From Amphiscolops sp. MND2022 (Eukaryota), in assembly GCA_964187785.1 (NCBI GenBank), contig OZ076409.1:75704001-75768000 (forward strand): a stretch of 64,000 nucleotides of DNA, read 5' to 3'. Position 1 is the stretch's first letter. Each line of letters opens with the position of its first letter. The position numbers and the translations under genes were made by a program. The notes beneath the pieces were generated by a model. It made no database searches and was not told where the DNA came from. It saw only the letters and a program-made list of their open reading frames with translations. Positions 1,707-63,000 of this stretch are shown here, in pieces.

Positions 1707-1749
1707 GAGTACATTTCATCTCCCTTTCGGGGGAGATGAGAATGTACTC
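1707..1749. other. Long imperfect palindrome GAGTACATT(T/C)CATCTCCC-loop-GGGAGATGAGAATGTACTC (example; one per complete 1.3 kb unit, about 250-290 bp before the junction)
   Basis: Two ~18-bp arms with one unpaired base in the right arm. The arms are conserved and the loop varies between subtypes. Confidence 0.9.
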
Positions 1750-26260: not shown

Positions 26261-26574
26261 GTGCCGGTGTATTTTTACACAATGGGGGATGTTGCGCGTG
26301 TGGGGAGGGTCCCTGACGCGCTTCCGTGGTTTCGGGTCTTCTAACCTATGATAGCGTGACACCTGACTTCGATCTCGTAAACTAGCCGTACGATTTGGCT
26401 GAAATTTGGCACACGTACCCCCCTCGGCACGGTGAAGATGATTTCCTACTGACGTTTTTCCCGCTAAACATTTTTTGTTGACCAAAATAACGGTTTTTGG
26501 GGTAAAATTTTCAACTTTTTTTAAATTTCATCTTATATCTCGCCACGGGTTCACGCTAGCGCTTCCAAACCTTG
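26261..26574 (+). mobile_element. 3'-truncated unit (314 bp) ending at a cryptic CTTG and fused to the exact start of the next unit
   Basis: Intact sisters read CCAAACCTTG-CTGACGAAAG (about 6147, 23986, 32051). This copy reads CCAAACCTTG-GTGCCCGGATTTCTATTC, which is the start sequence seen at 17147 and 34311. Confidence 0.9.
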
Positions 26575-38500: not shown

Positions 38501-41500
38501 AACTTATGATCCTTTTGTGTAGGGCGTTGTCTGTAGAACACGTATGCCAAATTTGGTGGCGATCGGACTTAAACTCAGCGAGATAGAGCCATTTTTTAGG
38601 TGCATTTTTTGTCATTTTTTGCATTTGCCGATTTATCTCTGCCATTTTTTGCCCAAATTTTTTTCGAGACACTCTCCTAAAGACCTCCCCTGGCCGTTTT
38701 ACCTCCCAGCAAAACCATTTGGCCCTAAATACGAAGTTTCAGCATTCTAGCATTCTCGGGCGAAAAGTTGTGGGACTTAGAAACATTTTTTGGAAACGCA
38801 AAATGTGTAAAGTCAACTTCAGGACTCCCAAAGTCAAGGAACTTTCACACAACTAGTATTGCAAGTGAATGCATGTGGAAAGTACTCGTATAGACGAGGA
38901 AAATGAGCTATAGAACGTCTCTGTATCTTAATCTGACGTTGACTTATGATGTTTTGAATGTGGGCTTGCTTAAGGGTAAAAAATTTAATAAATGAAAATG
39001 GAAACAGTCTCGTCTAAAACTCATATGAACATGTTCAATCCACCCCAGAGTGGTTTAATTCCAGTTGTCTAGTCCAGCAAAACCATTCAAGGGCATGCAA
39101 CTCACTTTTATAAATTTTGAAATTGTCTTATCCATCCGAGAGCACAAAACATTTGAGTACATTCCATCTCCCTCCTGGGGGAGATGAGAATGTACTCGCT
39201 AAAGTCCAAGTACTACAGGCCACAATTGTTTTAATGCGACGCTCTATATGCTAGTGCATATTGCTACCTAACGTTTGTCTTAATTTTTCCTCTGACTCGA
39301 CATATGCTGTACCTTTGGTCCAAACATTACCATTATAAACAGCACTAACGTCAACGCCACATACTCTTATCAACGCCCACCGTCCGTAGGCATGCCGAGG
39401 CATGCCTTTCGACGACGTATGCCAAATACCTTAAAACCGACGCGCACTCTCCCGCTAGGTGCCGGGATTTCCATTCGATAAGGTATTCTGCGCGTGTGGG
39501 TAGGGCCCCTGGCGCGCTCCTGTGTTTTCGGTTTTCCTACTCCAAATTCACACCCCAGTTATCTCCGATCTCGTAAACTATCCATACGATTTGGCTGAAA
39601 TTTGGCACACAGCTTCGTTGGAACATTGTAAGAACAAATCCCTACTGACGTTTTGCCCGCTAAACATTTTTTGTTGGTCAAAAATGCGATTTTCCGACAA
39701 AATTTTTGACTTTTTTTTCTTTTTCAACTCATATCTCGCCACAGGGTCACGCTAGCGCATTGCAACCTATGATCCTTTTTTGTAGGGCATTGCATGTAGA
39801 ACACGTATGCCAATTTTGGTGGCGATAGGACTTAAACTCAGGGAGATATAACGATTTTTTAGGTGCATTTTTTGACATTTTTTGCATTTGCTGATTTATC
39901 TTTGCCGTTTTTTGCCCAGATTTTTTTTGAGACACTCTCCTAAAGACCTCCCCTGGCCAGTTTACCTCCCAGCAAAACCATTTGGCCCTAAATACGAAGT
40001 TTCAGCGTTCTAGCAATCCCGGGCGAAAAATTATGGGACTTAGAAAATTTTTTTGAAAACGCAAAATGTGTAAAGTCAACTTCAGGCCTCCCAAAGTCAA
40101 GGAACTTTCACACAACTAGGATTGCAAGTGGATGCATGTGGAAAGTACTGGGATAGACGAGAAAAATGAGCTATAGAACGACTCTGTAGCATAACTTGAC
40201 GTTGACTTATGATGTTTTGAATGTGTGCTTGCTAAGGGGTCCGAAATTGAAAATTTTTAAAGAAAATTAATATCGTCAAAAATTCATCGAAATGCCTGCA
40301 ATATACAGTAGAGCGTGTTCAATTGTAGCTGACTAATGCATCAACGCAACTCAAGGTCTTTTAACTCAGTTTCAAATTTTTTTACACTGTATTATCCATC
40401 CGAGAGATCGAAACAGTTGAGTACATTCCATCTCCCTCCCGGGGGAGATGAGAATGTACTCGCTAAAGTCCAGATACCACAGCCCATAATTGTTTCTCTG
40501 CAACGCCATCTATGCTACTGCACATAACTACTAATCTTAGGACTGAATTTTGCCTTCGCTTTGACTTGACATATGCTGAAGGTTTGATCCTTTCACACAT
40601 CAATATTACCTGAACAAAACAACCCTAACATCAACGCCCCACACTCACATCAACGCCCACCGTCCGTGGGCATGCCGAGGCATGCCCTTCGACGACGTAT
40701 ACCAAGATATACATAAGCGCGGTAGCCGCTAGGTGCCGGGATTTCTATTCGATAAAGTATGTGGCGCGCCTTGGGTAGGGTCCCTTGCGCGCTCTTGGGT
40801 ATGGTGTTCACCAGCTAGGAAACAGGGGTCGATTTTTCGGGATCTCCTAAACTAGCCACACGATTTGGCTGAAATTTGGCACACGTACTCCCCTCGGCAC
40901 GGTGAAGATGATTTCCTACTGACGTTTTTCCCGCAAAATTTTTTTTGTTGTCCAAAATAACGGTTTTTGGGGTAAAATTTTGAATTTTTTTTAAATTTTA
41001 TCTTATATCTCGCCACCGGTTTACGCTAGCGCTTCAAAACCCTGCTAAAGAAAGCTTGCAAACTGTCTCAGGAATGCGGTGTTAAATTTTCAGCTCAATC
41101 GGACTTAAACTCAGAGAGATATAGCGTTTTTCCGGAGCGGGGGGGTTTCATTTTTCTAACGGTCCAGCTTATCTTTGCCATTTTTTCGAAAATGCACTCG
41201 CCTAAAGGCCTCCCCTGGCCGGTTTTATTCCCAGCAAAACCATATGGCCCTAAATACGGAGTTTCAGCGTTCCAGCATTCCCGGGCGAAAAGTTGTGGGA
41301 CTTGGAAAATTTCAAAAATTTTCAAAAAATTTTTTTTCCGTTATTTGGGCCCCCAAAGTGGGGGAAAAGACCCCGCAACCAGTAAAGCAAGTGAATGCAT
41401 GTGGAAAGCCCTTAGTTAGATGAGAAAAATGGCGTTTAGAACGTCTTTTTATCTTGGCTCAACGTTGTCTAATGACGTTTTGAAGGTGACCGTTAGATAC

Positions 41501-44112
41501 GGAAAATTGATGTTTTGAGTCTTTATCCCATCTGAAAGCCACTGAGATACAACATGTTTTGCTCAAAACGTATTTCATTGCAGTTTCGCTGTCCATTAAC
41601 ACCCTTTGGTGTCTTTTGACGTATTTTTCTTTTCTATAATAACATTTTTTCTGTGTATTTATTCATTTGTTTTTCATCAAATAACTTGAAACAGTTGAGT
41701 ACATTCCATCTCCCTTCCCGGGGGAGATGAGAATGTACTCGCTAAAGGCCGCGAACTACGGTCTATATCTTCCCCAAAACAAAAGAGATTGAAAATTGTT
41801 TCATTTTGTGGAAAAAGTTCTTCTTTTTGTACACTGTGACTCGACAAAGTGAACGTTTCTTACCTATTTTGAAACTTCCCTCACCAAAAACCATCTCTAA
41901 CGTCAGCGCCCCCCTACTTGCATCAACGCCCCCCGTCCGTGGGCATGCCGAGGCATGCCCTTCGACGACGTATACCAAGATATACCTGGAGCGCGGTAGC
42001 CGCTAGGTGCCGGGATTTCCATTCGATAAGGAATTCTGCGCGTGTGGGTAGGGCCCCTGGCGCGCTCCTGTGTTTTCGGTTTTCCTACTCCAAATTCACA
42101 CCCCAGTTATCTCCGATCTCGTAAACTATCCATACGATTTGGCTGAAATTTGGCACACGTACCCCCCTCGGCACGGTGAAGATGATTTCCTACTGACGTT
42201 TTTCCCGCTAAACATTTTTTGTTGACCAAAATAACGGTTTTTGGGGTAAAATTTTCAACTTTTTTTAAATTTTATCTTATATCTCGCCACGGGTACACGC
42301 TAGCGCTTCCAAACCTTGCTGACGAAAGTTTGCAAACTGTCTCAGGAATGCTGTGTGAAATTTTCGGCTCAATCGGACTTAAACTCGAGGAGATATAGCG
42401 TTTTTCCGGAGCGGGGGGGTTTCATTTTTCTAACGGTCCAGCTTATCTTTGCCATTTTTTCGAAAATGCACTCGCCTAAAGGCCTCCCCTGGCCGGTTTT
42501 ATTCCCAGCAAAACCATTTGGCCCTAAATACGGAGTTTCAGCGTTCCAGCATTCCCGGGCGAAAAGTTGTGGGACTTAGAAAATTTCAAAAATTTTCAAA
42601 AATTTTTTTCCGTTATTTGGGCCCCCAAAGTGGGGGAAAAGACCCCCCAACCAGTAAAGCAAGTGAATGCATGTGCAAAGCCCTTGTTTAGAGGAGAAAA
42701 ATGCCGTTTAGAACGTCTTTTTATCTTGGCTCAACGTTGACTTATGACGTTTTGAAGGTGATGTTTGGAGGTGTAAATCACGTGAATAGTAAACGTTATG
42801 AGTATTTATCTGATCTGAAAGCCATTGAGATGCAATATGGTTTGCTCAAAACGTAATTCATGGCAGTTTGGCAATCAATCAACACCCTTTGTTGTCGTTT
42901 GACATACTTTTTTGTTGTTATAATAAAAATTTTGTGTATTTGTTCATTTTTTTCTCATCAAATAACTTGAAACAGTTGAGTACATTCCATCCCCCCTTCC
43001 GGGGGAGATGAGAATGTACTCGCAAAAAGCAGCGAATTACGGCCCTTACCTTTCCGAGCTACGCAGTATAAGGATTACATATTGGTTCCGACATTTTCAT
43101 AGAGTTAAATCTTGGTAATCTGTCTGGATATGCAGAAAAATCAGCACGTGCCTTTTAATACCAAGTTGCTCACAACGACAATTATTTTATATCAACGCCC
43201 CCATATTTATCAACGCCCCCCGTCCGTGGGCATGCCGAGGCATGCCCTTCGACGACGTATACCAAGATATACATCGAGCGCGTTAGCCTAGGTGGTCCGG
43301 GGCTGTTTTTGCCCCACAAGAACTTTGCGAGGCCTGGGGAGGGTCCCGGAGCCGAGCGCAATATCCAAAATACATCACTAGTCCACCGGGTCCGATTTCG
43401 GCGATTTTGGAATCTAACCATACGATTTTAATAAAACTTTGCACACATACCTAAAATCAAATTATAAGAACTTTTTTCCCCTGACGTATCATCATTGAAA
43501 CATTTGTTGAAAAGTTATGTGCAAATGATCGTGTGTTTTGGTCATTTTTCGCATTTTTCACACAGTAGCTCCACACTTTACGCTATGCATTTGGCCCATT
43601 TTTTGCGTGCGCGGCATAAATGATGTCATGTTTACACATGCCAAAAACTATTTCTCAATTCGCAACAGGAGTGGAGATATGGCGGATAATAGTGGCGGAA
43701 AATTTCATGATTACGAAAATTTGCACATATTTGCCCAACATTTGTTTGAAAAATGAGAAAAATTAAAAAGTCCGCGGATTGCGTTGAAACTTGGCACACA
43801 GGTAGTTGAACAAATTCTAAGAACTTTTTCTCTCTGACGTTTTTCCGAAAAATTGCATCTTCAACCTATATTTGCAATATTTCGGATTTTTTGATTCAAG
43901 GTGATTTATCACTCACATATTCAAAGTCCATTTTCAGCATGAAGCAACGCAGATACCGGCAATGTGCACATATTGCAAAATCATCAACGGCCAATGGTCT
44001 ACCGAACGGTCCAAAAAAATTTTGCCCTCGGGCCCAATGAAAGTGGCCAAAAGTGCCAAAAGCTTTTTTCCAACAGTATCACCATTACAAAATTGATGAT
44101 TTGATCAGGAGG

Positions 44113-45300
44113 AACGGTCCGCACGGTCTCGGACCATAAGGTGAAAAAGTGTCAGTGAGTTATGGTGACGACCAAAATGACATTGGTTGACCTCTAAGAG
44201 GCCTCTGGAAAAATTTGATTTTTTTGAGTCACGGTCCGAGTTGATCTGTTACGTTGTATGAACATTTCATAATCATGTTACTCATAACCGAGTACAGATA
44301 GCACCGTGGGTCATCTTTATCAAAATGAACATTGGGCAGCGGTCTAACGATTGAGTGCAAAAAATATACCTTAGTTGCCGTAGTGACAGAAAAAAATTTT
44401 CAGAAGTGTTGTTTTCAATTTTTCATGTCGACTCGCAGTTACAAAATTGTGATTTTCTCTTCTGCAACGGTCCGAACGGTCTCGGACCATAAGATCAAAA
44501 TTTGTCAGTGTGACATGGTGGCGCCCAAAAACACATTAGAACAGTGGTAGGAAGCTTCTGAACAAATTTCGAAATTTTACGTGGGTCCGAGAGTTATAGT
44601 GTCACATCGTAACTACATTTCGGGTATGCATATCTCCTTACAGAGTACAGATAGCATCATGGGTCACCTTTTCGAAAAAGAACGTGGGCCACTGGTCTAT
44701 CGATTGGTCATAAAAAGTTTTCAGTCACTGCTGCACGGCGTGCACAATATGCCAATATGGGGTAGTTAGCATTTTTTTGCACGACTCGGACCTACAAAAG
44801 TCCCATTTCTGCTCCACCAACGGTCCGTACGGTCTTGAACCATAAGGTCAAAAAGTGTCAGTGTGCTATGGTGACGCCCAAAAACCCATCAGTACACTTG
44901 TAGAGTGCTTCTGAAAAATTTTGGAATTTTTAGGTGAGTCCGAGAGTTATAGAGAGTTATGTTGTCACATCGTAACTACTTTTCGGGTATGTATATCTCC
45001 TGACAGAGTACAGATAGCAACATGGGTCATCTTTTGGAAAGTAAACGTGGCCCACTGGCCTACCGAATGGTGATAAAAAATTTTCACTAGTTGCTACAGG
45101 GAATGATAAAAGTGCTTACATGTGTTACTTACCATTTTTTTAGGCGACTCGGACTTACAAAAAGCTTATTTGCTCGCCAACAACGGTCTCTACGGTCTCC
45201 GACCATAAGGTCAAAAAAGTTTTGTGAGCTATGGTGACGCCCAAAAACCCATCAGTTTACCTGTAGGATGATTCTGAAAAAATTTGTTTTTTTCCAGTTC
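44113..45300 (+). repeat. Internal ~355 bp diverged tandem subrepeat (3 full copies and 1 partial) inside the 4.9 kb unit
   Basis: AACGGTC(C/T)...GACCATAAG...TGGTG(A/G)CG motifs start at 44113, 44466, 44819 and 45182 (spacing 353, 353, 363). Each full copy contains GAGTACAGATAGCA. The same set begins at about 51092, 55992 and 60886. Confidence 0.85.
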
Positions 45301-47148
45301 ACTATGTTAGATACTACATGGCGAACCGTGTTATTTTTCCAACAAAATTATGTTTTTGAGTGCCCGAAATTAGTTTTTAAAGCACAATAGCCACATAAAA
45401 TGTTGTTTTGCATAACATGGGATGTGAATAACATGAAAAAAGTGCCCACTGTGGGTTTGGGGTCATTTTGAAAAAAATCAGCTGCCATTGGACGTTACAC
45501 AACAGAAAATCATACCTCACATATCAATATATGGGTTGAGTGAAAAATAGCTTAAATGATTTTTCAGTCAATCAAGACCCTTTTTTGTTCACAACCACGT
45601 GTACAGCTGACGTTTAACGCATATTGATCTTCCGCAATGGTTACATTACGATTTTGAGTGACAAAAGCCCCGTTGACAAACAAAATTCCAAGATAAAGTT
45701 TGTTTCCAAATCATTTTTTGACGTATACGACCGCCAATTTCTGCCCACACACATCAATTATCCACTTCTCTTAGTCCAGTGGCATGTGAAAAACACAACT
45801 AGGCATTGACAATCCACATACACTATAAATCGAGTAGTCATGGGCAACAATATTTACAAATCAGTAGTGAAATTTGTCTAAAATTGATAACACTTCACAA
45901 TTTTGTTGGAATCAAACTAGCAAAATGGAGGTTTATCAGCAACTTTTGGCTTTCACAGCAACCCACTGGCCCTGTAATATAGGAAAAGGGTGTTTACTGA
46001 ACTTTTAAGGTTATATTTCAGAGTCTGAGGTAGCTAAAAATATCATACTGAAGAGACGCATGACTTCAACTTCAGTATTTTTCCCGATGTGTCAGCACTT
46101 TTTTGGTATCGGCGGTCCCACCAATACTGTTTTTGGTCTGACACTAAACCTTAGGATCAACCAAGGTGGATACCAGACCTGAAAAATCCATGCAAGGAAT
46201 TTCGACATGTCAAAAGTAGTGATGACAGGAGATATTTCCCAAAAATTCCAGTTACTTGTCACGTTCCATTGTGCCTTTTTTAATCGGTCCTTGTCGGTTA
46301 TGGTATTAACGCTCAACAACAACCTCACTGACAACAAACAACTCGTTTATAGTTATAAAAAGTATTTATAATACAACCATGCTCGGTCTGGACAGGTTTT
46401 TCATCCCATTCTTTGTTAACAAGCAAATTTTTTTCCTCAAAAACCCAATTTTTGTCAGGTCGAAAATTGATTTCCCGTGTTTTGAACAACATTATTGTGT
46501 CTGACGTAACCTGTGGCCTCCAAAATACTGAAAAACAGATATATGACTGGTATCAAATGCTTCATTGACATGTGAGCCACGATAACACGTTTTGCAAAGA
46601 AAAATTCAACTTTTAAGTTAAAATTTTGAAGACACATTTTCATAATAAAAACAAAATTCATAAAAAGTAACTTTATTCCCGTCAAATACTATTGATATAC
46701 TATCAGTGTTGCTAATATGAGGTCTATACAGCGGTGTATGGGAAAAATGTGGCGCATAAAGCATTGTGTAACACAAAACTTTCCAAAGTACTGCGCATTT
46801 TTCACTGTACTTTTTGGACTCTATGACAAAAATTTGATAGTGTAAACATCAATGAGCAGTTCAATTTAGTACGATTATTCAACTGTGCATATGTTTCAAA
46901 GTGGACGATCTTTCTGTTGTTCCAAAATCCTTTGTTACGGCTGAAAAGATTCATATGTTTTACAACGCAATGTTCATTAAAAGATAAATTAGCAAAGACT
47001 GAATCAATTTTACAAAAGCTAACAAACTTCTCAATACGTCTTTCAGTACTTGGATTTTGCAGACTATATAGATCTGATTTGCATTTTTATAAAGACATTA
47101 TAACTGAATCTTGCATTTTTATAAAGAACTTATAAAAAAATTTCGTGA

Positions 47149-47187
47149 TAGCCTTCCAAGTTGGCCTTCGGCCAACTTGGAAGGCTA
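47149..47187. other. Perfect 18-bp-arm palindrome TAGCCTTCCAAGTTGGCC-TTC-GGCCAACTTGGAAGGCTA
   Basis: Identical copies at 54128-54166, 59027-59065 and 63921-63959. It lies about 1 kb before the unit end. Confidence 0.95.
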
Positions 47188-48189
47188 GCACTCCAAATAC
47201 CAAAAAACAGGAGTTCCTTTATTCTCAAAATAGCTGTGGACAGTTTCATTCAACTTTCTTTCCTCACGTTAATTGATAAATTCAGAACATAAACATTTCC
47301 ATTCGCTATAAGGAGATCATAATTGAGTTCCATAAAAACATCTTTCATTGTGTCGCTTAAAAATACCATAAAAACTAACTTGAAACATATGAATTGTATG
47401 TGGAACGTACATTCAATTTACCAGTGAGTGTCTACCCTTATTGGCTCCACCAAATCCTCTACCCCTCCACTAGACAGTACGTTACATCATACGTTGATGT
47501 ATTTCATAGTGGTGACATAGGGCCGAAAAAATAACGAAATGGAGTGTATGCATTGCTAATGCTATTAAGTCAGCCAATTGTGGTAGGAAAGGTTCAATAC
47601 TACAGAAAATATCTATTCCAACTGAAAATGATTTGGGGCAAACAGATGGCACACAAAAATACCTCAATAATTTTCACCAATCAATTTCTTCCACAAAAAC
47701 TTTTGTGTCCGATGGTGTATAATTTCCTAATTTGGAATCAGCCAGTCACGTCATTTTCACATCTCAGCTCGGTCATAACAGAGCGTTCTTTTTTGAAATT
47801 GTCTCTACCCAATTTCACTTAACGAGGCTGCTACGTCCCCTATTTGGAGTGTTATTAGTGTTTATAAGGGATTTATCACTCTAATGAACATATACTTCTA
47901 ATGTTGAAACTCTTTCACTTTTCTTTGTAAATTGTTAAAGTAGAACATTGCTGTTATTCAGCAGGAACTCGCTTTGGCTTGCAGAATGATGGAAAATAAA
48001 TGACAAGTCGCCCTGTAAGGCACCACGTGTCGTGGGGATGACAAATATGAAATAAGTTGAACACAACAAAGACTACTTTTGTCAACAGAAGGGAAAACGA
48101 ATATTTTAATTTTGAAAATTTTTATGTTTTTTAATACACATTTTCCTCGCATCTCGGCAGTGCAACTGCAACAACCTCGCCTCCACTGG

Positions 48190-49225
48190 GTGGTCCGGGG
48201 TAGTTCCCCACATTATTTAGTGCGAGGCCGGGGAGGGTCCCGATGCCGAGCTTAATTTTCGCGTGTCGTACTATATCCTTTAGCACACCAGTCAAAAAAC
48301 GGCGATTTTCGAATTGAACCGATAAAACTTCTTTAAACTTTGCATGTGTACTTATCTTGCCGATGTACAAATGATGTTCTGCTGGTCAAACATGATCCTA
48401 TTACTTGGCGGGAAGTTATGAGCAAATGATCGGTTTTTTCACCCTGTTTCGGTACTTTTTCGCTGCGCTATCTGCAGCATGTGAATACAATTGGCTGATA
48501 CTTTGCATGCGAGGCATAAATGATGTCAGGTGTGTGCATGCCAAAAATCATTAGGCTGGTGATACTAGGCTGGGAGATAGAAGTAGAAAAAGTAGTGGAA
48601 AATTGTGAATTCTCCGGTCATCGCGTCATAACTTCCGAACTTTGTATGAGATGGTGTTTAATGGAGCGGTAGCAGTACACTCGAGGTGGTTTCAACATCG
48701 CGTGGTCAGGATAAAAAAATAAAAAATGAAAAGTTCTACAAAAGTTCTACCAAAATTCTAAAAATTTAGAATTTTTTCAAAAATAAAGATTTTCTCATTT
48801 TTCGATGCTTTTTCACATTTTGAACGCAAAAAAGAAGTGACTCTGCACTTACGGTGACAATTAAAGGGGTTTCAGAGGTCAGAAAAGGTAATTGAGACAA
48901 TACTGAACTGTTGCTTCAGTTGTTGGAACTGAATGTGTAAGTATATTTTTGTTCAATTGTAAGTTACAACATCACCGTTCTCCGGAGGACCGCGAAGCAG
49001 TTCGGAGGAAGAACGGTGATGACAAACTACATTGCCTGTACATCACCTGTGATGGTTCGCGCGTGCGTTATAGGATGAATTATTGCAGATGAAAGAAAGC
49101 CGTTTTGAGCAAGTTTTGTACAATGCATAACAATTGATGGTCGTTATCCTGTGAGTTCCGCCTCATTGCTTACCTCTACAATGTCATTACGGCCTTTCTC
49201 GTGATTGTACCTTTGCCTCCACTGG
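48190..49225 (+). mobile_element. 1036 bp short cassette S1
   Basis: Starts GTGGTCCGGGGTAGTTCC and ends GTACCTTTGCCTCCACTGG. Its 5' part shares motifs with the 4.9 kb 5' end. It contains the palindrome CATCACCGTTCT...AGAACGGTGATG (48970-49021). Confidence 0.85.
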
Positions 49226-50273
49226 GTGGTCCGGGGTAGTTCCCCACATTATTTAGTGCGAGGCCGGGGAGGGTCCCGATGCCGAGCTTAATTTTCGCGT
49301 GTCGTACTATATCCTTTAGCACACCAGTCAAAAAACGGCGATTTTCGAATTGAACCGATAAAACTTCTTTAAACTTTGCATGTGTACTTATCTTGCCGAT
49401 GTAAGAATGATGTTCTGCTGGTCAAACATGATCCTATTACTTGGCGGGAAGTTATGAGCAAATGATCGGGTTTTTCACCCATTTTCGGTACTTTTTCGCT
49501 GCGCTATCTGCAGCATGTGGATACAATTGGCTGATACTTTGCATGCGAGGCATAAATGATGTCAGGTGTGTGCATGCCAAAAATCATTAGGCTGGTGATA
49601 CTAGGCTGGGAGATAGAAGTAGAAAAAGTAGTGGAAAATTGTGAATTTTCCCGTCATCGCGTCATAACTTCCGATCTTTGGATGAGATGGTGTTTACTTG
49701 AGCGGTAGCAGTGCAGTCGATGTGTTTTCAACATCGCGTGGTCAGGATAAAAAATAAAAAATAAAAAAGTTCTACAAAAGTTCTACAAAAATTCTAAAAA
49801 GTACGAATTTTTCCAAAAAAAAAGATTTTTTCATTTTCCATTGTATTTCTATACCAGGAATTCAGAAATCACATTATTTTTCGTGTCAACGGCGTCAAAA
49901 TGGGTTGTTTTTTAATATTGACCGCTTTCACCAGCTTGATGTACCAGTTTCGGTAAGTATTTGAAAAATATTCAGGGTTGAGGCAAATGCATAAGTAGCA
50001 CGATTTTAAAACGTCATTTTATTTGTCACCGGTGTTCCGAGGGATGCACAGCAGCACGCAGGAACAACGGTGACCCGGAAGGAAGGCTGTAGATACTTCT
50101 TACGACCGAAGGCAGTCACTGTTTAATTTTCTTCGACATGATTATGTACGTCGTTGCGATGTGCATCGCCAAAAATTCACATCAGTGACCCCAAAGTGGA
50201 ACAATTTATACATGAATTGAGAACAGACAGTACCGTTCGGCCCCCTGGTAATTGGTACCTTTGCCACCACTGG
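49226..50273 (+). mobile_element. 1048 bp short cassette S2
   Basis: The first ~600 bp are near-identical to S1 and the next ~420 bp differ. It contains the palindrome GTCACCGGTGTTCC...GGAACAACGGTGAC (50025-50074) and ends GTACCTTTGCCACCACTGG. Confidence 0.85.
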
Positions 50274-53200
50274 GTGGTCCGGGGTGGTCCCCCACAAGAA
50301 CTATTGCGAGGCCTGGGGAGGGTCCCGGAGCCGAGCGCTATATACAAAATGCATCCATGGTAGACCGGGAGAAAAACAAGCGATTTTCCAATCTAACCGT
50401 TAGATTTCCATGAAACTTTGCACACATACATAAAATTAAATTCTAAGAACTTTTTCCCCCTGACGTATCATGATTGAAACATTTGTTGGAAAGTTATGTG
50501 CAAATGATCGTGTTTTTTGGCCATTTTTCGCATTTTTCACGCAGCAGCTCCACACTTTACGCTATGCATTTGGCCCATTTTTTGCGTGCGAGGCATAAAT
50601 GATGTCATGTTTACACATGCCAAAAATTAATTCTCAATTCGCAACAGGAGTGGAGATATGGCGGATAATATTGGCGGAAAATTTACCGAATACGAAAATT
50701 TGCACATATTTGGCCAAAATTTGTTTCGAAAATGAGAAAAATCAAAAAGTCCGCGGATTGCGTTGAAACTTGGCAAAAAGGTAGTAGAACAAATTCTAAG
50801 AAGTTTTTCCTTCTGACGTTTTTCCGAAAAATTGCATCTTCAACCTATATTTGCAATATTTCGGGTTTTGTGATTCAAGGTGATTTATCACTCACATATT
50901 CAAAGTCCATTATCAGCATGAAGCAATGCAGATACCGCCAATGTGCACATATTGCAAAATCATCAACGGCCAACGGTCTACCGAACGGTCCAAAAAAATT
51001 TTCCCCTCGGGCCCAATCAAAGTGGTCAAAAGTGGCAAAAGGTTTTTTCCAATAGTATCACCATTACAAAATTGATGATTTGACCAGGAGGAACGGTCCG
51101 CACGGTCTCGGACCATAAGGTAAAAAAGTGTCAGTGAGTTATGGTGACGACTAAAATGACATCGGTTGACCTCTAAGAGGCCTCTGGAAAAATTTGATTT
51201 TTTTGAGTCACGGTCCGAGTTGATCTGTTACGTTGTATCAACATTTCATAATCATGTTACTCATAACCGAGTACAGATAGCACCGTGGGTCATCTTTATC
51301 AAAATGAACGTTGGGCAGCGGTCTAACGATTGAGTGCAAAAAATATACTATAGCTGCCATAGTGAAAGAAAAAAATTTTCAGAAGTGTTGTTTTCAATTT
51401 TTCATGTCGACTCGCAGTTACAAAAATGTGATTTTCTCTTCAGCAACGGTCCGAACGGTCTGGTACCATAAGATAAAAATTTGTCAGTGTAACATGGTGG
51501 CGCCCAAAAACACATCAGAACACTGGTAGGAAGCGTCTGAACGATTTTCGAATTTTCACGTGGGTCCGAGAGTTATAGTGTCACATCGTAAGTACATTTC
51601 GGGTATGCATATCTCCTCACAGAGTACAGATAGCATCCTGGGTCACCTTTTCGAAAAAGAACGTGGGCCACTGGTCTATCGATTGGTCATGAAAAGTTTT
51701 CAGTCAGTGCTGCACGGCGTGAATAATATGCCTATATGCGGTATTTAGCATTTTTTTGCACGACTCGGACCTACAAAAGGCCCATTTCTGCTCCACCAAC
51801 GGTCCGTACGGTCTTCGACCATAAGGTCAAAAAGTGTCTGTGTGCTATGGTGACGCCCAAAAACCTATCAGTACACTTGTAGAGTGCTTCTGAAAAATTT
51901 TGGATTTTTTAGGTGAGTCCGAGAGTTATGGAGAGTTATGTTGTCACATCGAAACTACATTTCGGGTATGTATATCTCCTGACAGAGTACAGATAGCAAC
52001 ATGGGTCATCTTTTGGAAAGTGAACGTGAGCCACTGGCCTACCAAATGGTGATAAAAAGTTTTCATCAGTTGGTACAGGGAGTGACAAAAGTGCTTACAT
52101 GGGGTACTTAGCATTTTTCCAGGCGACTCGGACTTACAAAAAGCTTATTTGCCCGCCAACAACGGTCTGTACGGTCTCCACTCAATGGGTCGAAATTTTT
52201 TTGTGGGCTATGGTGACGCTCAAAAACCCATCAGTTTACTTGTGGGATGATTCTGTAAAAATTTAGTGTTTTCGTGCAGACTATGTTACATATTACATTG
52301 GGAACCGTGTTTTTTTCTCTCCAAAATCATGTTTTTGAGTGCCCAAAAACTGTTTGTAAAGCCCAGTAGCCATCTAAAATGTACTTTTGCATAACATGGG
52401 GTGTGAGTAACGTGAAGAAAGTGCTCACTGTGGATTTGGAGTTATGTCGAAAAAATCAGCTGCCATTAGACGTTACATTACAGAAAATCGTACCTTACAT
52501 ATCGATTCATGGGTTGAGTCAAAAACAGCTAAAGTTCTTTTTCAGTCAATCAAGACTCTTTTTTGTTCACAACCAAGCGTACTGCTGACGTCGAACCTAT
52601 TTTGACCTTCCACAATGGTTATAGTGCAATTTTGAGGTACAAAAGCCTCGTTGACAAACAAAATTCCAAGATGAAATAGCTTTCCAAATCATTTTTTGAA
52701 GTATAGGAACGCCATTTTTAGCCGACAACCATCAAATATCCACTTCTCTTGGCCCAGTGGCTTGTGAAAAATACAACTGGGCATTGACAAGGCACAAGGA
52801 CCTTACTTCGAGTAGTCATGTGCCACAATATTTGCTAATCGATAGCAAATTTTGTTGAAAATTGAAACAACATCACATTTTTGGTGGACTCGAAATGACA
52901 AAATGGAGCTTCTGCAGCAACTATAGGCTTTTAGTGCAACTCAGTGGCACTGTTATTTAGGAAAATACGGTCTACAGTAGTTTCATGCTACTTTTTCAGA
53001 ATCTGAGGTACATAAAAATATCATACTGAATAGACATATGACTTAAACATTGGAATTTTTCCGGTTGTGTCACCACTTTTTTGGTATCAGCGGTCCTACC
53101 AACACTGTTTTTGGTCTAAAACTAAACCCGAGGCTCAACCAAGATGTATATCAGACTTGTAAAATAAATGCAAGGACTTTCGACATGTCAAAAGTACTGA

Positions 53201-55168
53201 TAAGAAGAGAAACTTCTCAAAAAATCATGTTATGTGTCATATTCCATTCCAGGTTTTTTAATCGGTGCTTGTCGGTTATGGTATTAACGCTCAACAACGA
53301 CCTCACTTACAACAAACAACTCGTTTATAGTCTTTAAAAGTGTTTATAATACAACCATGCTTGGTCTGGACACATTTTTTATCCCATTCGTTCGTAACAA
53401 TAAAAATTTTTTCCCCAATAACCCAATTTTTGTCAGGTCGAAAACTGATTTTTCGTGCTTTGAACAACATTATTGTGTCTGACGTAACCTGTGGCCTCCG
53501 AAATACTGAAAAACAGATATATGACTGGTATCAAATGCTTCAGTGACATGTGAGCCACGATAACACGTTTTGCAAAGAAAAATTCAACTTTCAACTGAAA
53601 ATTTCGAAGACACATTTTCACAATAGAAACAGAATATATGACAATCTAACCTAATTCCCGTCAATTACTATTAATATAGTATCATTGTTGCGAATATGAG
53701 GTCCATACAGGGGTGTATGGGAAAAATATGGCGCATAAAGCATTGTGTAACACAAAGTTTACCAAAGTACTAAGAATTTGTCACGGTGTTTTTGCACTCT
53801 AACTCTAAAATTTGATGGTGTAAACATCAATGAGCAGTTCAATTTAGTACGGTTTATCAACTGTGTATCCTTTTTCAAAGTGCACGATCTTTCTGTTGTT
53901 CCAAAATCCTTTGTTAGGGCTGAAAAGTGTCATATGTTTTACAACGCAATGTTCATTAAAAGATACATTAGCAAAGACCGAATCAACTTCACAGCAGGTA
54001 ATCAAATTCTCAATACGTCTTTCAGTACTTGGATTTCGCAGACTATATAGATTTGATTTGCATTTTTTTAAAGACTTTATAACTGAATCTTGCATTTTTA
54101 TAAAGAGTTTATAAAAAAATTTCGTGATAGCCTTCCAAGTTGGCCTTCGGCCAACTTGGAAGGCTAACACTACAAACACCAAAAACCAGGAGTTACTTTA
54201 TTCTCAAAATAGGCGAGGAAACTTTCATTGAACTTTCTTTTCTCACCTTAATTGATAAATTCAGGACATGAGCATTTCTATTCGCTATACGATGACCACC
54301 ATTGTGTTCAATAAATAAATCTTTCCTTGTGACGCTTAAAAATACCATAAAAACTAACTTGAAACATATGAATTGTATGTGGAACGTACATTTATCTAAG
54401 CAATGAGTGGCTACTACTATTGGTTCCACGAAATCCTCTACCCCTCCACCAGACAGTACGTTATATCATACGTTGCTGTATTCCACAGTGGTGACATAGG
54501 GCAAAAAAAGGAAATGGAGTTGGCGTGTATGTATTTCTAATGCATTTAAGTCAGCCACTAGTGGTAGGAAAGGTTCAATACTACGGAATAAATCTATCCT
54601 AACTGAAAATTATTTGGGCAAACACATGGCACACAAAAATACTTCAAAAATTTTCAGCAGTCAATTCCTTCCACAAAAATTTTTCTGTCCGATTGTGAAT
54701 AATTTCAATATTTGGAATTCGCCAGTCCCGTCATCTTCGCATCTCAGCTCGGTCACAACAGAGCTTTCTTTTTTACAATTCTCTCCACCCATTTCCACAT
54801 AACGAGGCAGTTACGTTCACTATTTGGAGTGTTATTGGAGATTATAAGGCATTAATCACTGTTATGAACAATTACTTCTAATGTTGATACTCTTCCACTT
54901 TTCTTTGTAAATTGTTAAAGTAGAACATCGCTTTTATTCAGCAGGAACGTCGCGTTGGCTTGCAGATTGATGGATAATAAGTGACAAGTAGCATTGTAAG
55001 GCACCACGTGTAGTGGAGATGCCAAATATGAAATACGTTGAACACAACAAAGACTACTTTTGTCAACATAACGGAAAACGAAAATTTTATTGTTGAAAAT
55101 TCTTATCTTTCTATACACATTTTCCTCGCTTCTCGGCAGTGTAACTGCAACAACCTCGCCTCCACTGG
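50274..55168 (+). mobile_element. 4895 bp non-coding cassette, subtype beta
   Basis: Starts GTGGTCCGGGGTGGTCCCCC. Colinear with alpha but visibly diverged, and near-identical to the unit starting at 60067. Confidence 0.85.
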
Positions 55169-58100
55169 GTGGTCCGGGGCTGTATTGTGCCCCACAGTAG
55201 TCCTTGCGAGGCCGGGGAGGGTCCCGATTGCCGAGCGCATTATCCAAAATACATCACTAGTCCACCGGGTCGGATTTCGGCGATTTTGGAATCTAACCAT
55301 ACGATTTAAATAAAACTTTGCACACATACCTAAAATCAAATTATAAGAACTTTTTTCCCCTGACGTATCATCATTGAAACATTTGTTGAAAAGTTATGTG
55401 CAAATGATCGTGTTTTTTGGCACTTTTTCGCATTTTTCACACAGTAGCTCCACACTTTACGCTATGCATTTGGCCCATTTTTTGCGTGCGCGGCATAAAT
55501 GATGTCATGTTTACACATGCCAAAAATTATTTCTCAATTCGCAACAGGAGTGGAGATATGGCGGATAATAGTGGCGGAAAATTTAACGAATACGAAAATT
55601 TGCACATATTTGGCCAAAATTTGTTTCGAAAATGAGAAAAATAAAAAAGTCCGAGGATTGCGTTGAAACTTGGCACACAGGTAGTAGAACAAATTTTAAG
55701 AACTTTTTTCTTCTGACGTTTTTCCGAAAAATTGCATCTTCAACCTATATATGCAATATTTCGGGTTTTTTGATTCAAGGTGATTTATCACTCACATATT
55801 CAAAGTCCAAATTCAGCATGAAGCAACGCAGATACCGGCAAGGTGCACATATTGCAAAATCATCAACGGCCAACGGTCTACCGAACGGTCCAAAAAAATT
55901 TTCCCCTCGGGCTCAATCAAAGTGGCCAAAAGTGCCAAAAGGTATATTCCAACAGTATCACCATTACAAAATTGATGATTTGACCAGGAGCAACGGTCCG
56001 CACGGTCTCGGACCATAAGGTGAAAAAGTGTCAGTGAGTTATGGTGACGACCAAAATGACATTGGTTGACCTCTAAGAGGCCTCTGGAAAAATTTGATTT
56101 TTTTGAGTCACGGTCCGAGTTGATCTGTTACGTTGTATGAACATTTCATAATCATGTTACTCATAACCGAGTACAGATAGCACCGTGGGTCATCTTTATC
56201 AAAATGAACATTGGGCAGCGGTCTAACGATTGAGTGCAAAAAATATACCTTAGTTGCCGTAGTGACAGAAAAAAATTTTCAGAAGTGTTGTTTTCAAATT
56301 TTCATGTCGACTCGCAGTTACAAAATTGTGATTTTCTCTTCTGCAACGGTCCGAACGGTCTCGGACCATAAGATCAAAATTTGTCAGTGTGACATGGTGG
56401 CGACCAAAAACACATTAGAACAGTGGTAGGAAGCTTCTGAAAAAATTTCGAAATTTTACGTGGGTCCGAGAGTTATAGTGTCACATCGTAACTACATTTC
56501 GGGTATGCATATCTCCTTACAGAGTACAGATAGCATCATGGGTCACCTTTTCGAAAAAGAACGTGGGCCACTGGTCTATCGATTGGTCATAAAAAGTTTT
56601 CAGTCACTGCTGCACGGCGTGCACAATATGCCAATATGGGGTATTTAGCATTTTTTTGCACGACTCGGACCTACAAAAGTCCCATTTCTGCTCCACCAAC
56701 GGTCCGTACGGTCTTGAACCATAAGGTCAAAAAGTGTCAGTGTGCTATGGTGACGCCCAAAAACCTATCAGTACACTGGTAGAGTGCTTCTGAAAAATTT
56801 TGGAATTTATAGGTGAGTCCGAGAGTTATAGAGAGTTATGTTGTCACATCGTAACTACTTTTCGGGTATGTATATCTCCTGACAGAGTACAGATAGCAAC
56901 ATGGGTCATCTTTTGGAAAGTAAACGTGGCCCACTGGCCTACCGAATGGTGATAAAAAGTTTTCACTAGTTGCTACAGGGAATGATAAAAGTGCTTACAT
57001 GTGTTACTTACCATTTTTTTAGGCGACTCGGACTTACAAAAAGCTTATTTGCTCGCCAACAACGGTCTCTACGGTCTCCGACCATAAGGTCAAAAAAGTT
57101 TTGTGAGCTATGGTGACGCCCAAGAACCCATCAGTTTACCTGTAGGATGATTCTGAAAAAATTTGTTTTTTTCCAGTTCACTATGTTAGATATTACATGG
57201 CGAACCGTGTTATTTTTCCAACAAAATTATGTTTTTGAGTGCCCGAAATTAGTTTTTAAAGCACAATAGCCACATAAAATGTTGTTTTGCAAAACATGGG
57301 ATGTGAATAACATGAAAAAAGTGCCCACTGTGGGTTTGGGGTCATTTTGAAAAAATCAGCTGCCATTGGACGTTACACAACAGAAAATCATACCTCACAT
57401 ATCAATATATGGGTTGAGTGAAAAATAGCTTAAATGATTTTTCAGTCAATCAAGACCCTTTTTTGTTCACAACCACGTGTACAGCTGACGTTGAACGCAT
57501 ATTGATCTTCCGCAATGGTTACATTACGATTTTGAGTGACAAAAGCCCCGTTGACAAACAAAATTCCAAGATAAAGTTTGTTTCCAAATCATTTTTTGAC
57601 GTATACAACCGCCAATTTCTGCCCACACACATCAATTATCCACTTCTCTTAGTCCAGTGGCATGTGAAAAACACAACTAGGCATTGACAATCCACATACA
57701 CTAAAAATCGAGTAGTCATGGGCAACAATATTTACAAATCAGTAGTGAAATTTGTCTAAAATTGATAACACATCACAATTTTGTTGGAATCAAACTAGCA
57801 AAATGGAGGTTTATCAGCAACTTTTGGCTTTCACAGCAACCCACTGGCCCTGTAATATAGGAAAAGGGTGTTTACCGAACTTTTAAGGTTATATTTCAGA
57901 GTCTGAGGTAGCTAAAAATATCATACTGAAGAGACGCATGACTTCAACTTCAGTATTTTTCCCGATGTGTCAGCACTTTTTTGGTATCGGCGGTCCCACC
58001 AATACTGTTTTTGGTCTGACACTAAACCTTAGGATCAACCAAGGTGGATACCAGACTTGAAAAATCATTGCAAGGAATTTCGACATGTCAAAAGTAGTGA

Positions 58101-60066
58101 TGACAGGAGATATTTCCCAAAAATTCCAGTTATTTGTCACGTTCCATTGTGCCTTTTTTAATCGGTCCTTGTCGGTTATGGTATTAACGCTCAACAACAA
58201 CCTCACTGACAAGAAACAACTCGTTTATAGTTATAAAAAGTATTTATAATACAACCATGCTCGGTCTGGACAGGTTTTTCATCCCATTCGTTGTTAACAA
58301 GCAAATTTTTTTCCCCAAAAATCCAATTTTTGTCAGGTCGAAAATTGATTTCCCGTGTTTTGAACAACATTATTGTGTCTGACGTAACCTGTGGCCTCCA
58401 AAATACTGAAAAACAGATACATGACTGGTATCAAATGCTTCATTGACATGTGAGCCACGATAACACGTTTTGCAAAGAAAAATTCAACTTTTAAGTTAAA
58501 ATTTTGAAGACACATTTTCATAATAAAAACAAAATTCATAAAAAGTAACTTATTTCCCGTCAAATACTATTGATATACTATCAGTGTTGCTAATATGAGG
58601 TCTATACAGCGGTGTATGGGAAAAATGTGGCGCATAAAGCATTGTGTAACACAAAACTTTCCAAAGTACTGCGCATTTTTCACTGTACTTTTTGGACTCT
58701 ATGACAAAAATTTGATAGTGTAAACATCAATGAGCAGTTCAATTTAGTACGATTATTCAACTGTGCATATGTTTCAAAGTGCACGATCTTTCTGTTGTTC
58801 CAAAATCCTTTGTTACGGCTGAAAAGATTCACATGTTTTACAACGCAATGTTCATTAAAAGATAAATTAGCAAAGACTGAATCAATTTTACAAAAGCTAA
58901 CAAACTTCTCAATACGTCTTTCAGTACTTGGATTTTGCAGACTATATAGATCTGATTTGCATTTTTATAAAGACATTATAACTGAATCTTGCATTTTTAT
59001 AAAGAACTTATAAAAAAATTTCGTGATAGCCTTCCAAGTTGGCCTTCGGCCAACTTGGAAGGCTAGCACTCCAAATACCAAAAACAGGAGTTCCTTTATT
59101 CTCAAAAGAGCTGTGGACAGTTTCATTCAACTTTCTTTTCTCACGTTAATTGATAAATTCAGAACATAAACATTTCCATTCGCTATAAGGAGATCATAAT
59201 TGAGTTCCATAAAAACATCTTTCATTGTGTCGCTTAAAAATACCATAAAAACTAACTTGAAACATATGAATTGTATGTGGAACGTACATTCTATTTACCA
59301 GTGAGTGTCTACCCTTATTGGCTCCACCAAATCCTCTACCCCTCCACTAGACAGTACGTTACATCATACGTTGATGTATTTCACAGTGGTGACATAGGGC
59401 CAAAAAAAAAACGAAATGGAGTGTATGCATTGCTAATGTTATTAAGTCAGCCAATTGTGGTAGGAAAGGTTCAATACTACGAAAAATATCTATTCCAACT
59501 GAAAATGATTTGGGGCAAACACATGGCACACAAAAATACCTCAATAATTTTCACCAATCAATTTCTTCCACAAAAACTTTTGTGTCCGATGGTGTATAAT
59601 TTCCTAATTTGGAATCAGCCAGTCACGTCATTTTCGCATCTCAGCTCGGTCATAACAGAGCGTTCTTTTTTGAAATTGTCTCTACCCAAATTCACGTAAC
59701 GAGGCTGCTACGTCCCCTATTTGGAGTGTTATTAGTGTTTATAAGGGATTAATCACTCTAATGAACATATACTTCTAATGTTGAAACTCTTTCACTTTTC
59801 TTTGTAAATTGTTAAAGTAGAACATTGCTGTTATTCAGCAGGAACTCGCTTTGGCTTGCAGAATGATGGAAAATAAATGACAAGTCGCCCTGTAAGGCAC
59901 CACGTGTTGTGGGGATGACAAATATGAAATAAGTTGAACACAACAAAGACTACTTTTGTCAACAGAAGGGAAAACGAAAATTTTAATTATGAAAATTTTT
60001 ATGTTTTTTAATACACATTTTCCTCGCATCTCGGCAGTGCAACTGCAACAACCTCGCCTCCACTGG
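55169..60066 (+). mobile_element. 4898 bp non-coding cassette, subtype alpha (second copy)
   Basis: Same length and diagnostic variants as 43292-48189. Confidence 0.85.
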
Positions 60067-63000
60067 GTGGTCCGGGGTGGTCCCCCACATGAACTATTGC
60101 GAGGCCTGGGGAGGGTCCCGGAGCCGAGCGCTATATACAAAATGCATCCATGGTAGACCGGGAGAAAAACAAGCGATTTTCCAATCTAACCGTTAGATTT
60201 CCATGAAACTTTGCACACATACATAAAATCAAATTCTAAGAACTTTTTTCCCCTGACGTATCATGATTGAAACATTTGTTGAAAAGTTATGTGCAAATGA
60301 TCGTTTTTTTTTGGCCATTTTTCGCATTTTTCACGCAGCAGCTCCACACTTTACGCTATGCATTTGGCCCATTTTTTGCGTGCGAGGCATAAATGATGTC
60401 ATGTTTGCACATGCCAAAAATTATTTCTCAATTCGCAACAGGAGTGGAGATATGGCGGATAATATTGGCGGAAAATTTAACGAATACGAAAATTTGCACA
60501 TATTTGGCCAACATTTGTTTCAAAAATGACAAAAATTGAAAAGTCCGCCGATTGCGTTGAAACTTGGCACACAGGTAGTAGAACAAATTTTAAGAACTTT
60601 TTTCTCCTGACGTTTTTCCGAAAAATTGCATCTTCAACCTATATTTGCAATATTTCGGGTTTTTTGATTCGAGGTGATTTATCACTCACATATTCAAAGT
60701 CCATTTTCAGCATGAAGCAACGCAGATACCGGCAATGTGCACATATTGCAAAATCTTCAACGGCCAACTGTCTACCAAACGGTCCAAAAAAATTTTCCCC
60801 TCGGGCCCAATCAAAGTGGCCAAAAGTGGCAAAATGTTTTTTCCAACAGTATCACCATTACAAAATTGATGATTTGACAAGGAGGAACGGTCCGCACGGT
60901 CTCGGACCATTAGGTGAAAAAGTGTCAGTGAGTTATGGTGACGACCAAAATGACATTGGTTGACCTCCAAGAGGCCTCTGGTAAAATTTGATTTTTTTGA
61001 GTCACGGTCCGAGTTGATCTGTTACGTTGTATCAACATTTCATAATCATGTTACTCATAACCGAGTACAGATAGCACCGTGGGTCATCTTTATCAAAATG
61101 AACGTTGGGCAGCGGTCTAACGATTGAGTGCAAAAAATATACCTTAGCTGCCATAGTGAAAGAAAAAAATTTTCAGAAGTGTTGTTTTCAATTTTTCATG
61201 TCGACTCGCAGTTACAAAAATGTGATTTTCTCTTCAGGAACGGTCCGAACGGTCTGGTACCATAAGATAAAAATTTGTCAGTGTGACATGGTGGCGCCCA
61301 AAAACACATCAGAACACTGGTAGGAAGCGTCTGAACGATTTTCGAATTTTCACGTGGGTCCGAGAGTTATAGTGTCACATCGTAACTACATTTCGGGTAT
61401 GCATATCTCCTCACAGAGTACAGATAGCATCATGGGTCACCTTTTCGAAAAAGAACGTGGGCCACTGGTCTATCGATTGGTCATAAAAAGTTTTCAGTCA
61501 CTGCTGCACGGCGTGAATAATATGCCAATATGGGGTATTTAGCACTTTTTTGCACGACTCGGACCTACAAAAGGCCCATTTCTGCTCCACCGACGGTCCG
61601 TACGGTCTTCGACCATAAGGTGAAAAAGTGTCAGTGTGCTATGGTGACGCCCAAAAACTCATCAGTTTACTTGTAGAGTGCTTCTGAAAAGTTTTGGAAT
61701 TTTTAGGTGAGTCCGAGTGTTATAGAGAGTTATGTTGTCACATCATAACTACATTTCGGGTATGTATATCTCTTGACAGAGTACAGATAGCAACATGGGT
61801 CATCTTTTGGAAAATAAACGTGGGCCACTGGCCTACCGAATGGTGATAAAAAGTTTTCACCAGTTGCTACAGGGAGTGATAAAAGTGCTTACATGCGTTA
61901 CTTAGCATTTTTTCAGGCGACTCGTACTTACAAAAAGCTCATTTGCTCGCCAACAACGGTCTCTACGGTCTCCGACCATAAGGTCAAAAAAATTTTGTGA
62001 GCTATGGTGACGCCCAAGAACCCATCAGTTTACTTGTGGGATGATTCTGTAAAAATTTAGTGTTTTCGTGCAGACTATGTTACATATTACATTGGGAACC
62101 GTGTTTTTTTCTCTCCAAAATCATGTTTTTGAGTGCCCAAAAACTGTTTTTAAAGCCCAGTAGCCATCTAAAATGTACTTTTGCATAACATGGGGTGTGA
62201 GTAACGTGAAGAAAGTGCTCACTGTGGATTTGGAGTTATGTCGAAAAAATCACCTGCCATTAGACGTTACATTACAGAAAATCGTACCTTACATATCGAT
62301 TCATGGGTTGAGTCAAAAACAACTAAAGTTCTTTTTCAGTCAATCAAAACTCTTTTTTGTTCACAACCAAGTGTACTGCTGACGTCGAACCTGTTTTGAC
62401 CTTCCACAATGGTTATAGTGCAATTTTGAGGTACAAAAGCCTCGTTGACAAACAAAATTCCAAGATGAAATTGCTTTCCAAATCATTTTTTGAAGTATAG
62501 GAACGCCATTTTTAGCCGACAACCATCAAATATCCACTTCTCTTGGCCCAGTGGCTTGTGAAAAATACAACTGGGCATTGACAAGGCACAAGGACCTTAC
62601 TTCGAGTAGTCATGTCCCACAATATTTGCTAATCGATAGCAAATTTTGTTGAAAATTGATACAACATCACATTTTTGGTGGACTCGAAATGACAAATTGG
62701 AGCTTCTGCAGCAACTATAGGCTTTTAGTGCAACTCAGTGGCACTGTTATTTAGGAAAATACGGTCTACAGTAGTTTCATGCTACTTTTTCAGAATCTGA
62801 GGTACATAAAAATATCATTCTGAATAGACATATGACTTAAACATTGGAATTTTTCCAGTTGTGTCACCACTTTTTTGGTATCAGCGGTCCTACCAACACT
62901 GTTTTTGGTCTAAAACTAAACCCGAGGCTCAACCAAGATGTATATCAGACTTGTAAAATCAATGCAAGGACTTTCGGCATGTCAAAAGTACTGATAAGAA

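Follow-up and report, generated by a model that had tools for sequence, protein, structure and literature searches.

Among the described systems that come closest to the locus reported here are the Helitrons. The Helraiser element is reported to form circles with precise end junctions, its truncated copies ending in CTTG (PMC4778049), and in vitro its own plus-strand end junction is cleaved and rejoined (PMC5876387). At maize r1, two unlike Helitrons lie head to tail, an arrangement that the authors read as consecutive insertions (PMC2267711); Helitron arrays of two to seven copies are described from Xenopus (PMC12001565), and large subtelomeric Helitron-like expansions of single families from Hydractinia (PMC11934779). 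Integron arrays are built on a 7-bp core with a fixed crossover (PMC8876359). The locus studied here is a stretch of 64,000 nucleotides from Amphiscolops sp. MND2022 (assembly GCA_964187785.1, contig OZ076409.1, positions 75,704,001 to 75,768,000 of the forward strand), termed the window, which is filled by repeated units that are joined at a shared 7-bp core.

The whole window was found to be one head-to-tail array of 40 units, all in the same orientation, and the array is open at both window ends. Six of the units were termed alpha1, alpha2, beta1, beta2, S1, and S2, and the other 34 comprise 33 units of 1.0–1.6 kb and the partial unit U0. Across 737..43291 the unit types vary and their order is nonperiodic, and the last short unit runs directly into alpha1. 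Unit boundaries in the alpha/S/beta region were set with the cut placed after CTGG, giving the following layout.

1..736, plus strand: U0, a partial unit cut by the window start
737..43291, plus strand: 33 head-to-tail units, mostly 1.26–1.39 kb, joined at CTAGGTG
43292..48189, plus strand: alpha1, 4,898 bp, noncoding, starting GTG and ending CTGG, 94–99% identical to alpha2 per 250-column block
48190..49225, plus strand: S1, a 1,036-bp unit of the same family as its flanks
49226..50273, plus strand: S2, a 1,048-bp unit
50274..55168, plus strand: beta1, a 4,895-bp unit, 86.6% identical to alpha1
55169..60066, plus strand: alpha2, a 4,898-bp unit
60067..64000, plus strand: beta2, cut by the window end, 96.7% identical to beta1

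The units are joined at the core CT(A/G)GGTG, which has 39 plus-strand matches in the window, all at the 39 unit junctions, and four minus-strand matches, all within units. The total of 43 matches to CTRGGTG on both strands compares with 7.65 ± 2.97 in 100 shuffles, and the core is therefore not a product of chance. The first four bases are CTAG at 34 of the 39 junctions and CTGG at the other five, and two of the latter are of particular concern here.

48186..48192, plus strand: core CTGGGTG at the junction of alpha1 and S1
60063..60069, plus strand: core at the 'empty' junction of alpha2 and beta2

CTGGGTG was also found at 49222, 50270, and 55165, while CTAGGTG is present at 43288 and at 33 junctions upstream. 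The five junctions among alpha1, S1, S2, beta1, alpha2, and beta2 share 18 identical bp, and the right ends of alpha, beta, S1, and S2 read CCACTGG. When the comparison was extended to 20 right-end and 18 left-end classes, only the seven core positions were fixed, one of them as A or G, and the flanks were variable.

Exchange of units was then located relative to the core. Units that are 95–99% identical recur beside different neighbors. Discordance between left and right ancestry was scanned along an alignment of 29 junctions of the 1.3-kb array, from which U16 and the truncated U21 head were omitted; of the 771 cut points, those at the core gave the highest values, 0.47–0.50 compared with a median of 0.00–0.02. 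Change-points were sought within ± 610 nt in 44 pair-sides, seven of which were dropped for matching the neighbor (at 90% or more), leaving 37 pair-sides whose pairs are not independent. Of these change-points, 20 are no more than 10 nt from the core and 26 no more than 35 nt; a further four coincide with the beginning of the conserved right-end block, and seven are inside the next or the same unit. Directly upstream of the core is a near-invariant block of ~ 80 bp. Because seven base pairs between variable flanks are a poor substrate for homologous crossover beside a much longer conserved block, the pattern argues for a sequence-specific cut.

The junctions on either side of S1 and S2 had drawn attention first. 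The order alpha-S1-S2-beta-alpha-beta, given in a first-pass annotation of this DNA, was borne out by self-comparison of the window, and the same alpha and beta ends do meet at both sites: alpha1 and alpha2 agree in 297 of 300 columns over their last 300 nt, and beta1 and beta2 in 294 of 301 over their first 300 nt. The annotation had also held that the two sites differ by exactly S1+S2, and indeed removal of these 2,084 bp recreated the junction at 60063 at 119 of 120 bases, the single mismatch of the rejoined alpha1–beta1 junction lying 24 nt inside beta. The 'filled versus empty' description is real as a layout, but it is overstated in that each junction forms the end of an element and could equally serve as a target. 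The alternation of alpha and beta carries no weight as evidence, given that two of the six possible orders of two alphas and two betas alternate. At the level of unit classes, ten other filled/empty configurations are present in the upstream array, many of which are expected by chance, the types being few.

48183..48201, plus strand: left copy of a 19-bp direct repeat flanking S1+S2
50267..50285, plus strand: right copy of the same 19-bp direct repeat

Because of this flanking repeat, insertion, excision, and microhomology deletion would all leave an identical footprint, and therefore neither the position of the cut nor the direction of gain or loss can be read from the S1+S2 site alone. It is the rest of the array that, as judged from the sequence comparisons above, fixes the breakpoint at the core. 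The proposal that whole units are exchanged cleanly at internal junctions is thus supported, more by the rest of the window than by the site on which it had been based.

The view of S1 and S2 as foreign cassettes, by contrast, did not hold: both belong to the element family that also makes up their flanks. A single 4.9-kb family includes alpha and beta as variants (86.6% identical by window self-comparison), and S1 and S2, which are 95.8% identical to each other over the first 613 bp, share about 67% identity with alpha and beta over the first ~ 360 bp. The 3′ part of S2 is like that of S1 only at the hairpin described below and over the last ~ 19 nt, with the stretches between giving z scores of 0.5–0.7. 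The left 450 nt of all seven short-unit types tested align to alpha and S1 above shuffled sequences (z 3.1–12.0). Although the short-unit types are only ~ 70% identical, 30 of the 33 short units measure 1,263–1,317 bp. This near-constant length hints at a size constraint.

The unit ends and interiors carry conserved secondary structures, of which the following are examples.

43228..43247, no strand assigned: 20-bp right-end palindrome of the 1.3-kb units
47149..47187, no strand assigned: internal hairpin of alpha, with an 18-bp stem, z −9.71
48222..48250, plus strand: left-end hairpin of S1, with the GG-KAGGG-N-CC motif and a covarying outer stem
48970..49021, no strand assigned: long hairpin in the interior of S1, ~ 200 nt from the right end, z −5.25
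50025..50074, no strand assigned: long hairpin in the interior of S2, related to the S1 hairpin, z −5.57

At the left end, the GTG is followed in all 39 units examined by a GG-KAGGG-N-CC motif, placed 39–47 nt in from the start of the unit. The motif closes a hairpin, the outer stem of which differs in sequence by type but covaries: hairpins with their own arms fold at −7.9 kcal/mol compared with −6.6 kcal/mol for swapped arms (permutation p 0.002; 15 classes, three near-copies dropped), and the alignment fold displays both-sided changes in two of six pairs. The interior also holds a long hairpin, placed 200–1,000 nt from the right end and occurring in three or more versions of unrelated sequence; z scores of −5.3 to −9.7 were obtained for all six that were folded. 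The alpha hairpin is identical in all four alpha/beta copies, and its version recurs, with changes, in U0 and U16, two short units that are otherwise unalignable. The right-end palindrome was located 39–52 nt before CTAG at 34 of 34 short-unit right ends, with a compensatory change from G-C to A-T in three of these copies; it was also sought in alpha, beta, S1, and S2 and was not found there. The 1.3-kb units have, in addition, two copies of a short AACGCC-type motif close to the right end. Structural conservation persists in places where the sequence has diverged, and the array combines shared ends, a single orientation, breakpoints at the core, and covarying hairpins.

Some further structures were considered. 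In U1, a direct repeat of ~ 16 bp occupies 1191–1207 and 1741–1756, and similar repeats are present in other short units. Of the two copies, one overlaps the internal hairpin at its 3′ arm, and the other, 550 bp upstream, stands where the most conserved central block begins, directly before a small inverted repeat, with a second recombination peak nearby. A small hairpin immediately after the core was dropped as a candidate (mean z −0.23 over 15 classes), as was the whole junction as a single stable fold (z between −2.5 and + 0.4 in 11 folds). Pseudoknot or guide pairing of the left hairpin loop or the core with downstream sequence was likewise dropped (p 0.13 and 0.63), and folds like those of the hepatitis delta virus and pistol ribozymes, compared by eye with the consensus structures, were inconsistent across types.

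One junction departs from the canonical core.

26571..26577, plus strand: junction reading CTTG then GTG, where a truncated unit is joined to an intact left end

The truncated unit breaks off after ~ 313 bp and its remainder does not follow. The parental site reads CTTGCTG, a five-of-seven match to the core that is equaled at 18 of 1,289 positions in that unit type. The product, CTTGGTG, follows the left parent at position 3 and the right parent at position 5. The cut would accordingly adjoin the G at position 4, and a single-strand nick appears to fit better than exchange of a whole 7-bp overlap.

Our preferred interpretation of these data, to which we give a probability of roughly one half, is that the units are nonautonomous rolling-circle (HUH) elements that target their own end junction, while homologous exchange reshuffles their interiors. 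A rolling-circle (HUH-type) transposase, encoded elsewhere, would nick one strand after CT(A/G)G and would start at the GTG left end. One unit, or several by read-through, would be released as a circle closed at CTRG/GTG, and the circle would join a chromosomal junction of the same sequence, so that nothing is gained or lost. The S1+S2 pair between alpha and beta could then reflect one or two such insertions, or the difference could be due to loss of the pair. Ordinary homologous exchange would recombine the unit interiors and copy multi-unit blocks. The step from cutting a circle junction to targeting a chromosomal junction is one that we infer. An HUH enzyme is favored because it fits the 3′ CTRR, a left end that is precise where the right end is flexible, units that all point one way, and hairpins that are conserved.

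The likeness to Helitron1 (HLE1) extends to the 3′ CTRR end, present at 39 of 39 junctions, and to the reported lack of terminal inverted repeats, the palindrome near the 3′ end, the precise head-to-tail joins, the CTTG truncation, and the adjacency of unlike elements. The nonautonomous Helitron2/Helentron elements (HINE, DINE-1, Cg_HINE, and FoHeli; PMC4067079, PMC7492417, PMC5148889) are described with hairpins toward both ends and with central tandem repeats, both of which have counterparts here, and the minus-strand tip of the alpha hairpin, CC-GAA-GG, resembles the reported 5′ hairpin of FoHeli1.

44085..45293, plus strand: internal tandem repeats of ~ 363 bp in alpha1

Tandem repeats of 363 bp were found inside all four alpha/beta copies, and no comparable array was reported for the short units. 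Unlike these elements, however, the alpha/beta hairpin arm, the only arm tested, has no inverted partner near the other end; the alpha hairpin lies 1 kb inside the unit; and the junctions, with their CT(A/G)GGTG core, are G-rich, compared with the T-rich sites with a terminal T that are described for Helentrons. The first and last bases of the units are not complementary. The idea that alpha is the host of a nested Helitron2 was dropped, no partner repeat being present. The telomere-targeted Helitrons of Paramecium (PMC13085455) offer another parallel: sequence- and strand-specific insertion is proposed for them, with absolute orientation bias, and they have gene-less derivatives with internal satellites, as here. 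In Paramecium, a telomeric-repeat target is described as flanking each copy, whereas the present units abut without a spacer.

Several results weigh against self-targeting HUH elements, some from the array itself and some from searches for an enzyme or for relatives. In departure from Helitron1, the left ends start with (G)GTG in 39 of 39 cases and not with TC; the palindrome stands 39–52 nt, and not 10–12 nt, from the 3′ end at all 34 upstream right ends; the array junctions read G/G, with no insertion between A and T as judged within the window; the units have an extra conserved left-end hairpin and a long internal hairpin; and at least 40 units of many types stand in one orientation, compared with the pairs or short single-type runs that are described. 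An invariant core of exactly 7 bp is also what would be expected of a recombinase overlap. Eleven of the 37 change-points are more than 35 nt from the core, a second discordance peak appears near + 420 when a shorter scan window is used, and the unit interiors are mosaic, with 25 distinct left/right end combinations inside 38 units compared with 31 across 39 junctions. Adjacencies are repeated slightly more often than under random order (9 versus 4.6, p 0.05), and linkage across the core is low yet nonzero (r 0.19, p 0.006). The argument for a strand nick comes from one noncanonical junction, that is, one event, and hairpins cannot distinguish single-stranded DNA from RNA.

As for the searches, the longest open reading frame (ORF) in the window is 145 amino acids, and a Pfam scan of 18 frames, chosen from 28 ORFs and 38 stop-to-stop frames, gave no matches and hence no enzyme. 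Pattern scans of viral sequences returned 0, 0, 0, 1, and 13 loci, with one match per locus and so no array; a metagenome scan returned one match, in a hairpin between bacterial genes, and hence no relative; scans of prokaryote genomes returned 0 and 2 loci, again with a single match each; and blastn against phage and plasmid sequences found no match. No tRNA was found in the window. Rfam searches gave no match at the gathering threshold over 64 kb and, by E-value over 9 kb, four weak matches, none of them to a ribozyme. The array is noncoding as far as tested, which, together with the lack of phage and plasmid matches, agrees with a eukaryotic host. A literature search found no description of such an array, though most subscription papers and Repbase/Dfam were outside its scope and the families are possibly already catalogued.

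Two matches from these scans were looked at individually. Positions 10001–10024 of locus L001 match the right-end palindrome over 24 nt, inside a hairpin that resembles a terminator and lies between bacterial genes; this match was rejected as chance. Locus L002, a 2.5-kb contig resembling a circular Rep-encoding virus, carries a loose-pattern match at 845–908 on the minus strand, between its two convergent genes, with a hairpin that resembles the left-end hairpin; this match is within a rough estimate of chance and was given no weight.

It could be, more tentatively, that the units belong to an undescribed superfamily of eukaryotic DNA transposons, the enzyme of which recognizes two hairpin-bearing ends and uses its own 7-bp junction as the attachment site. 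Were this so, integron-like arrays of tens of different elements would exist in which units of 1–5 kb are swapped without a scar.

Of the competing mechanisms, a tyrosine recombinase survives best, though we regard it as rather unlikely. Either a Crypton-like enzyme or an integron-like one acting on folded single strands would excise and integrate circles, with the 7-bp core as overlap. The invariant core, the scarless joins, and the single orientation are the architecture of an integron array (PMC8876359), where heterogeneous units in one orientation are likewise described as joined without scars at a 7-bp core, excision and insertion leaving filled and empty junctions; moreover, the conserved motifs at a fixed ~ 40–50 nt on each side could be arm-type binding sites. 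Terminal direct repeats of 4–6 bp are described for Cryptons, for which movement as circles is proposed, and animal Cryptons are described as having no terminal repeats (PMC3212892). Cryptons and the Replitrons, which are reported from plants, algae, and protists (PMC10288648), share with the present units the lack of terminal inverted repeats, possibly the short direct end repeats, nonautonomous derivatives, and a proposed circular or rolling-circle movement. The core, however, is not GTTRRRY and is not enclosed by an attC-type palindrome: an attC-like inverse core (at most one mismatch) was found in only four of 20 right-end classes, and pairing probability at the core was 0.49/0.48 compared with 0.36 ± 0.21 in random windows that were not GC-matched. 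Inverted arms are lacking, the best score at the 39 junctions being 5.5 of 12 compared with 6.0 ± 1.2 at random sites. The noncanonical junction switches parent inside the core. Neither genes nor an integrase were seen, with no recombinase match in the 18 frames scanned, and no self-targeted arrays are reported for Cryptons or Replitrons in the available text of those papers (PMC3212892, PMC10288648). As regards the 4- to 6-bp Crypton repeats, each unit here is bounded by the shared 7-bp core, and element and target are inseparable in the array copies. In operation the array resembles stacked Helitrons and in appearance an integron, and it is classed here with neither.

Less probable again is that no dedicated enzyme is now at work and that the locus is an old complex satellite, shaped by unequal crossing-over and microhomology deletion, in which the 'empty' site is a deletion between the 19-bp repeats. 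That repeat would suffice for the S1+S2 event, homologous exchange is evidently at work, as seen in the chimeric interiors and in blocks of several units that recur, and an internal deletion with short filler is present in U12. Note, however, that the breakpoints pile up on the 7-bp core while the ~ 80-bp near-invariant block upstream took only four of 37, and that a satellite origin would leave unexplained the shared ends and covarying hairpins of units that range from 1.0 to 4.9 kb and have bodies that cannot be aligned.

An IS607-like serine transposase, exchanging over the central GG of the core, is improbable. All 39 canonical junctions have the GG, and IS607 elements are described as lacking terminal inverted repeats and target duplications, ending in GG and carrying short direct-repeat motifs near their ends (PMC6188088), to which the doubled AACGCC-type motif of the 1.3-kb units might correspond. 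The parental site of the noncanonical junction, however, reads GC and not GG in the seven related units shown, the conserved hairpins would be unexplained, and an enzyme with no described target preference beyond (G/C)GG (PMC6188088) would not yield strict arrays.

Nonautonomous retroelements read from the minus strand, inserting by target-primed reverse transcription at their own junction with the left-end hairpin as RNA 3′ recognition stem, are the least probable: the hairpins could act in RNA and the one truncated unit lost the end that is 5′ on the minus strand, but there is no poly(A) or simple-repeat tail at either end, only one of 38 complete units carries a truncated piece, which ends at a core-like site, and neither the Rfam searches (gathering threshold, 64 kb; E-value, 9 kb) nor the pseudoknot test (p 0.13) gave support. 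Self-stacking telomeric and ribosomal DNA retroelement arrays do exist. The array also differs from ribozyme-bearing satellites and retrozymes in that no known self-cleaving ribozyme was matched at the unit junctions in Rfam.

The self-targeting HUH elements favored here would bear on how such arrays arise. Helitrons joined head to tail are known in pairs or in short runs; here, many gene-less elements fill at least 64 kb, and an array of this length exchanged at one 7-bp site points to a self-targeting transposon. If so, self-targeting would provide a harmless landing place for a transposon and a route by which complex satellites arise. The defined ends, namely the core, the left hairpin, and the right palindrome, are direct bait for finding the enzyme, and a scarless single-site integrase for units of 1–5 kb would be of interest to genome engineers. 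Should the enzyme prove to be that of an ordinary Helitron, or the families be in Repbase already, the locus would be a well-resolved example of a Helitron-built satellite.

Finally, some individual units were informative in their own right. U16 (19733–21124) and U0 (1–736) are bridge types that combine a short-unit right end with an alpha-type internal hairpin, and the left end of U16 is alpha-like. U12 (14816–15857) has lost ~ 250 bp internally and contains a short filler copied from adjoining sequence. Internal deletion with short filler is typical of host repair, and the U12 deletion is likely a scar of host end-joining. In beta2, a block at ~ 61800–62070 (offsets ~ 1750–2000) is 93–94% identical to alpha compared with 90% to beta1, and is likely a gene-conversion tract within the 363-bp repeats.

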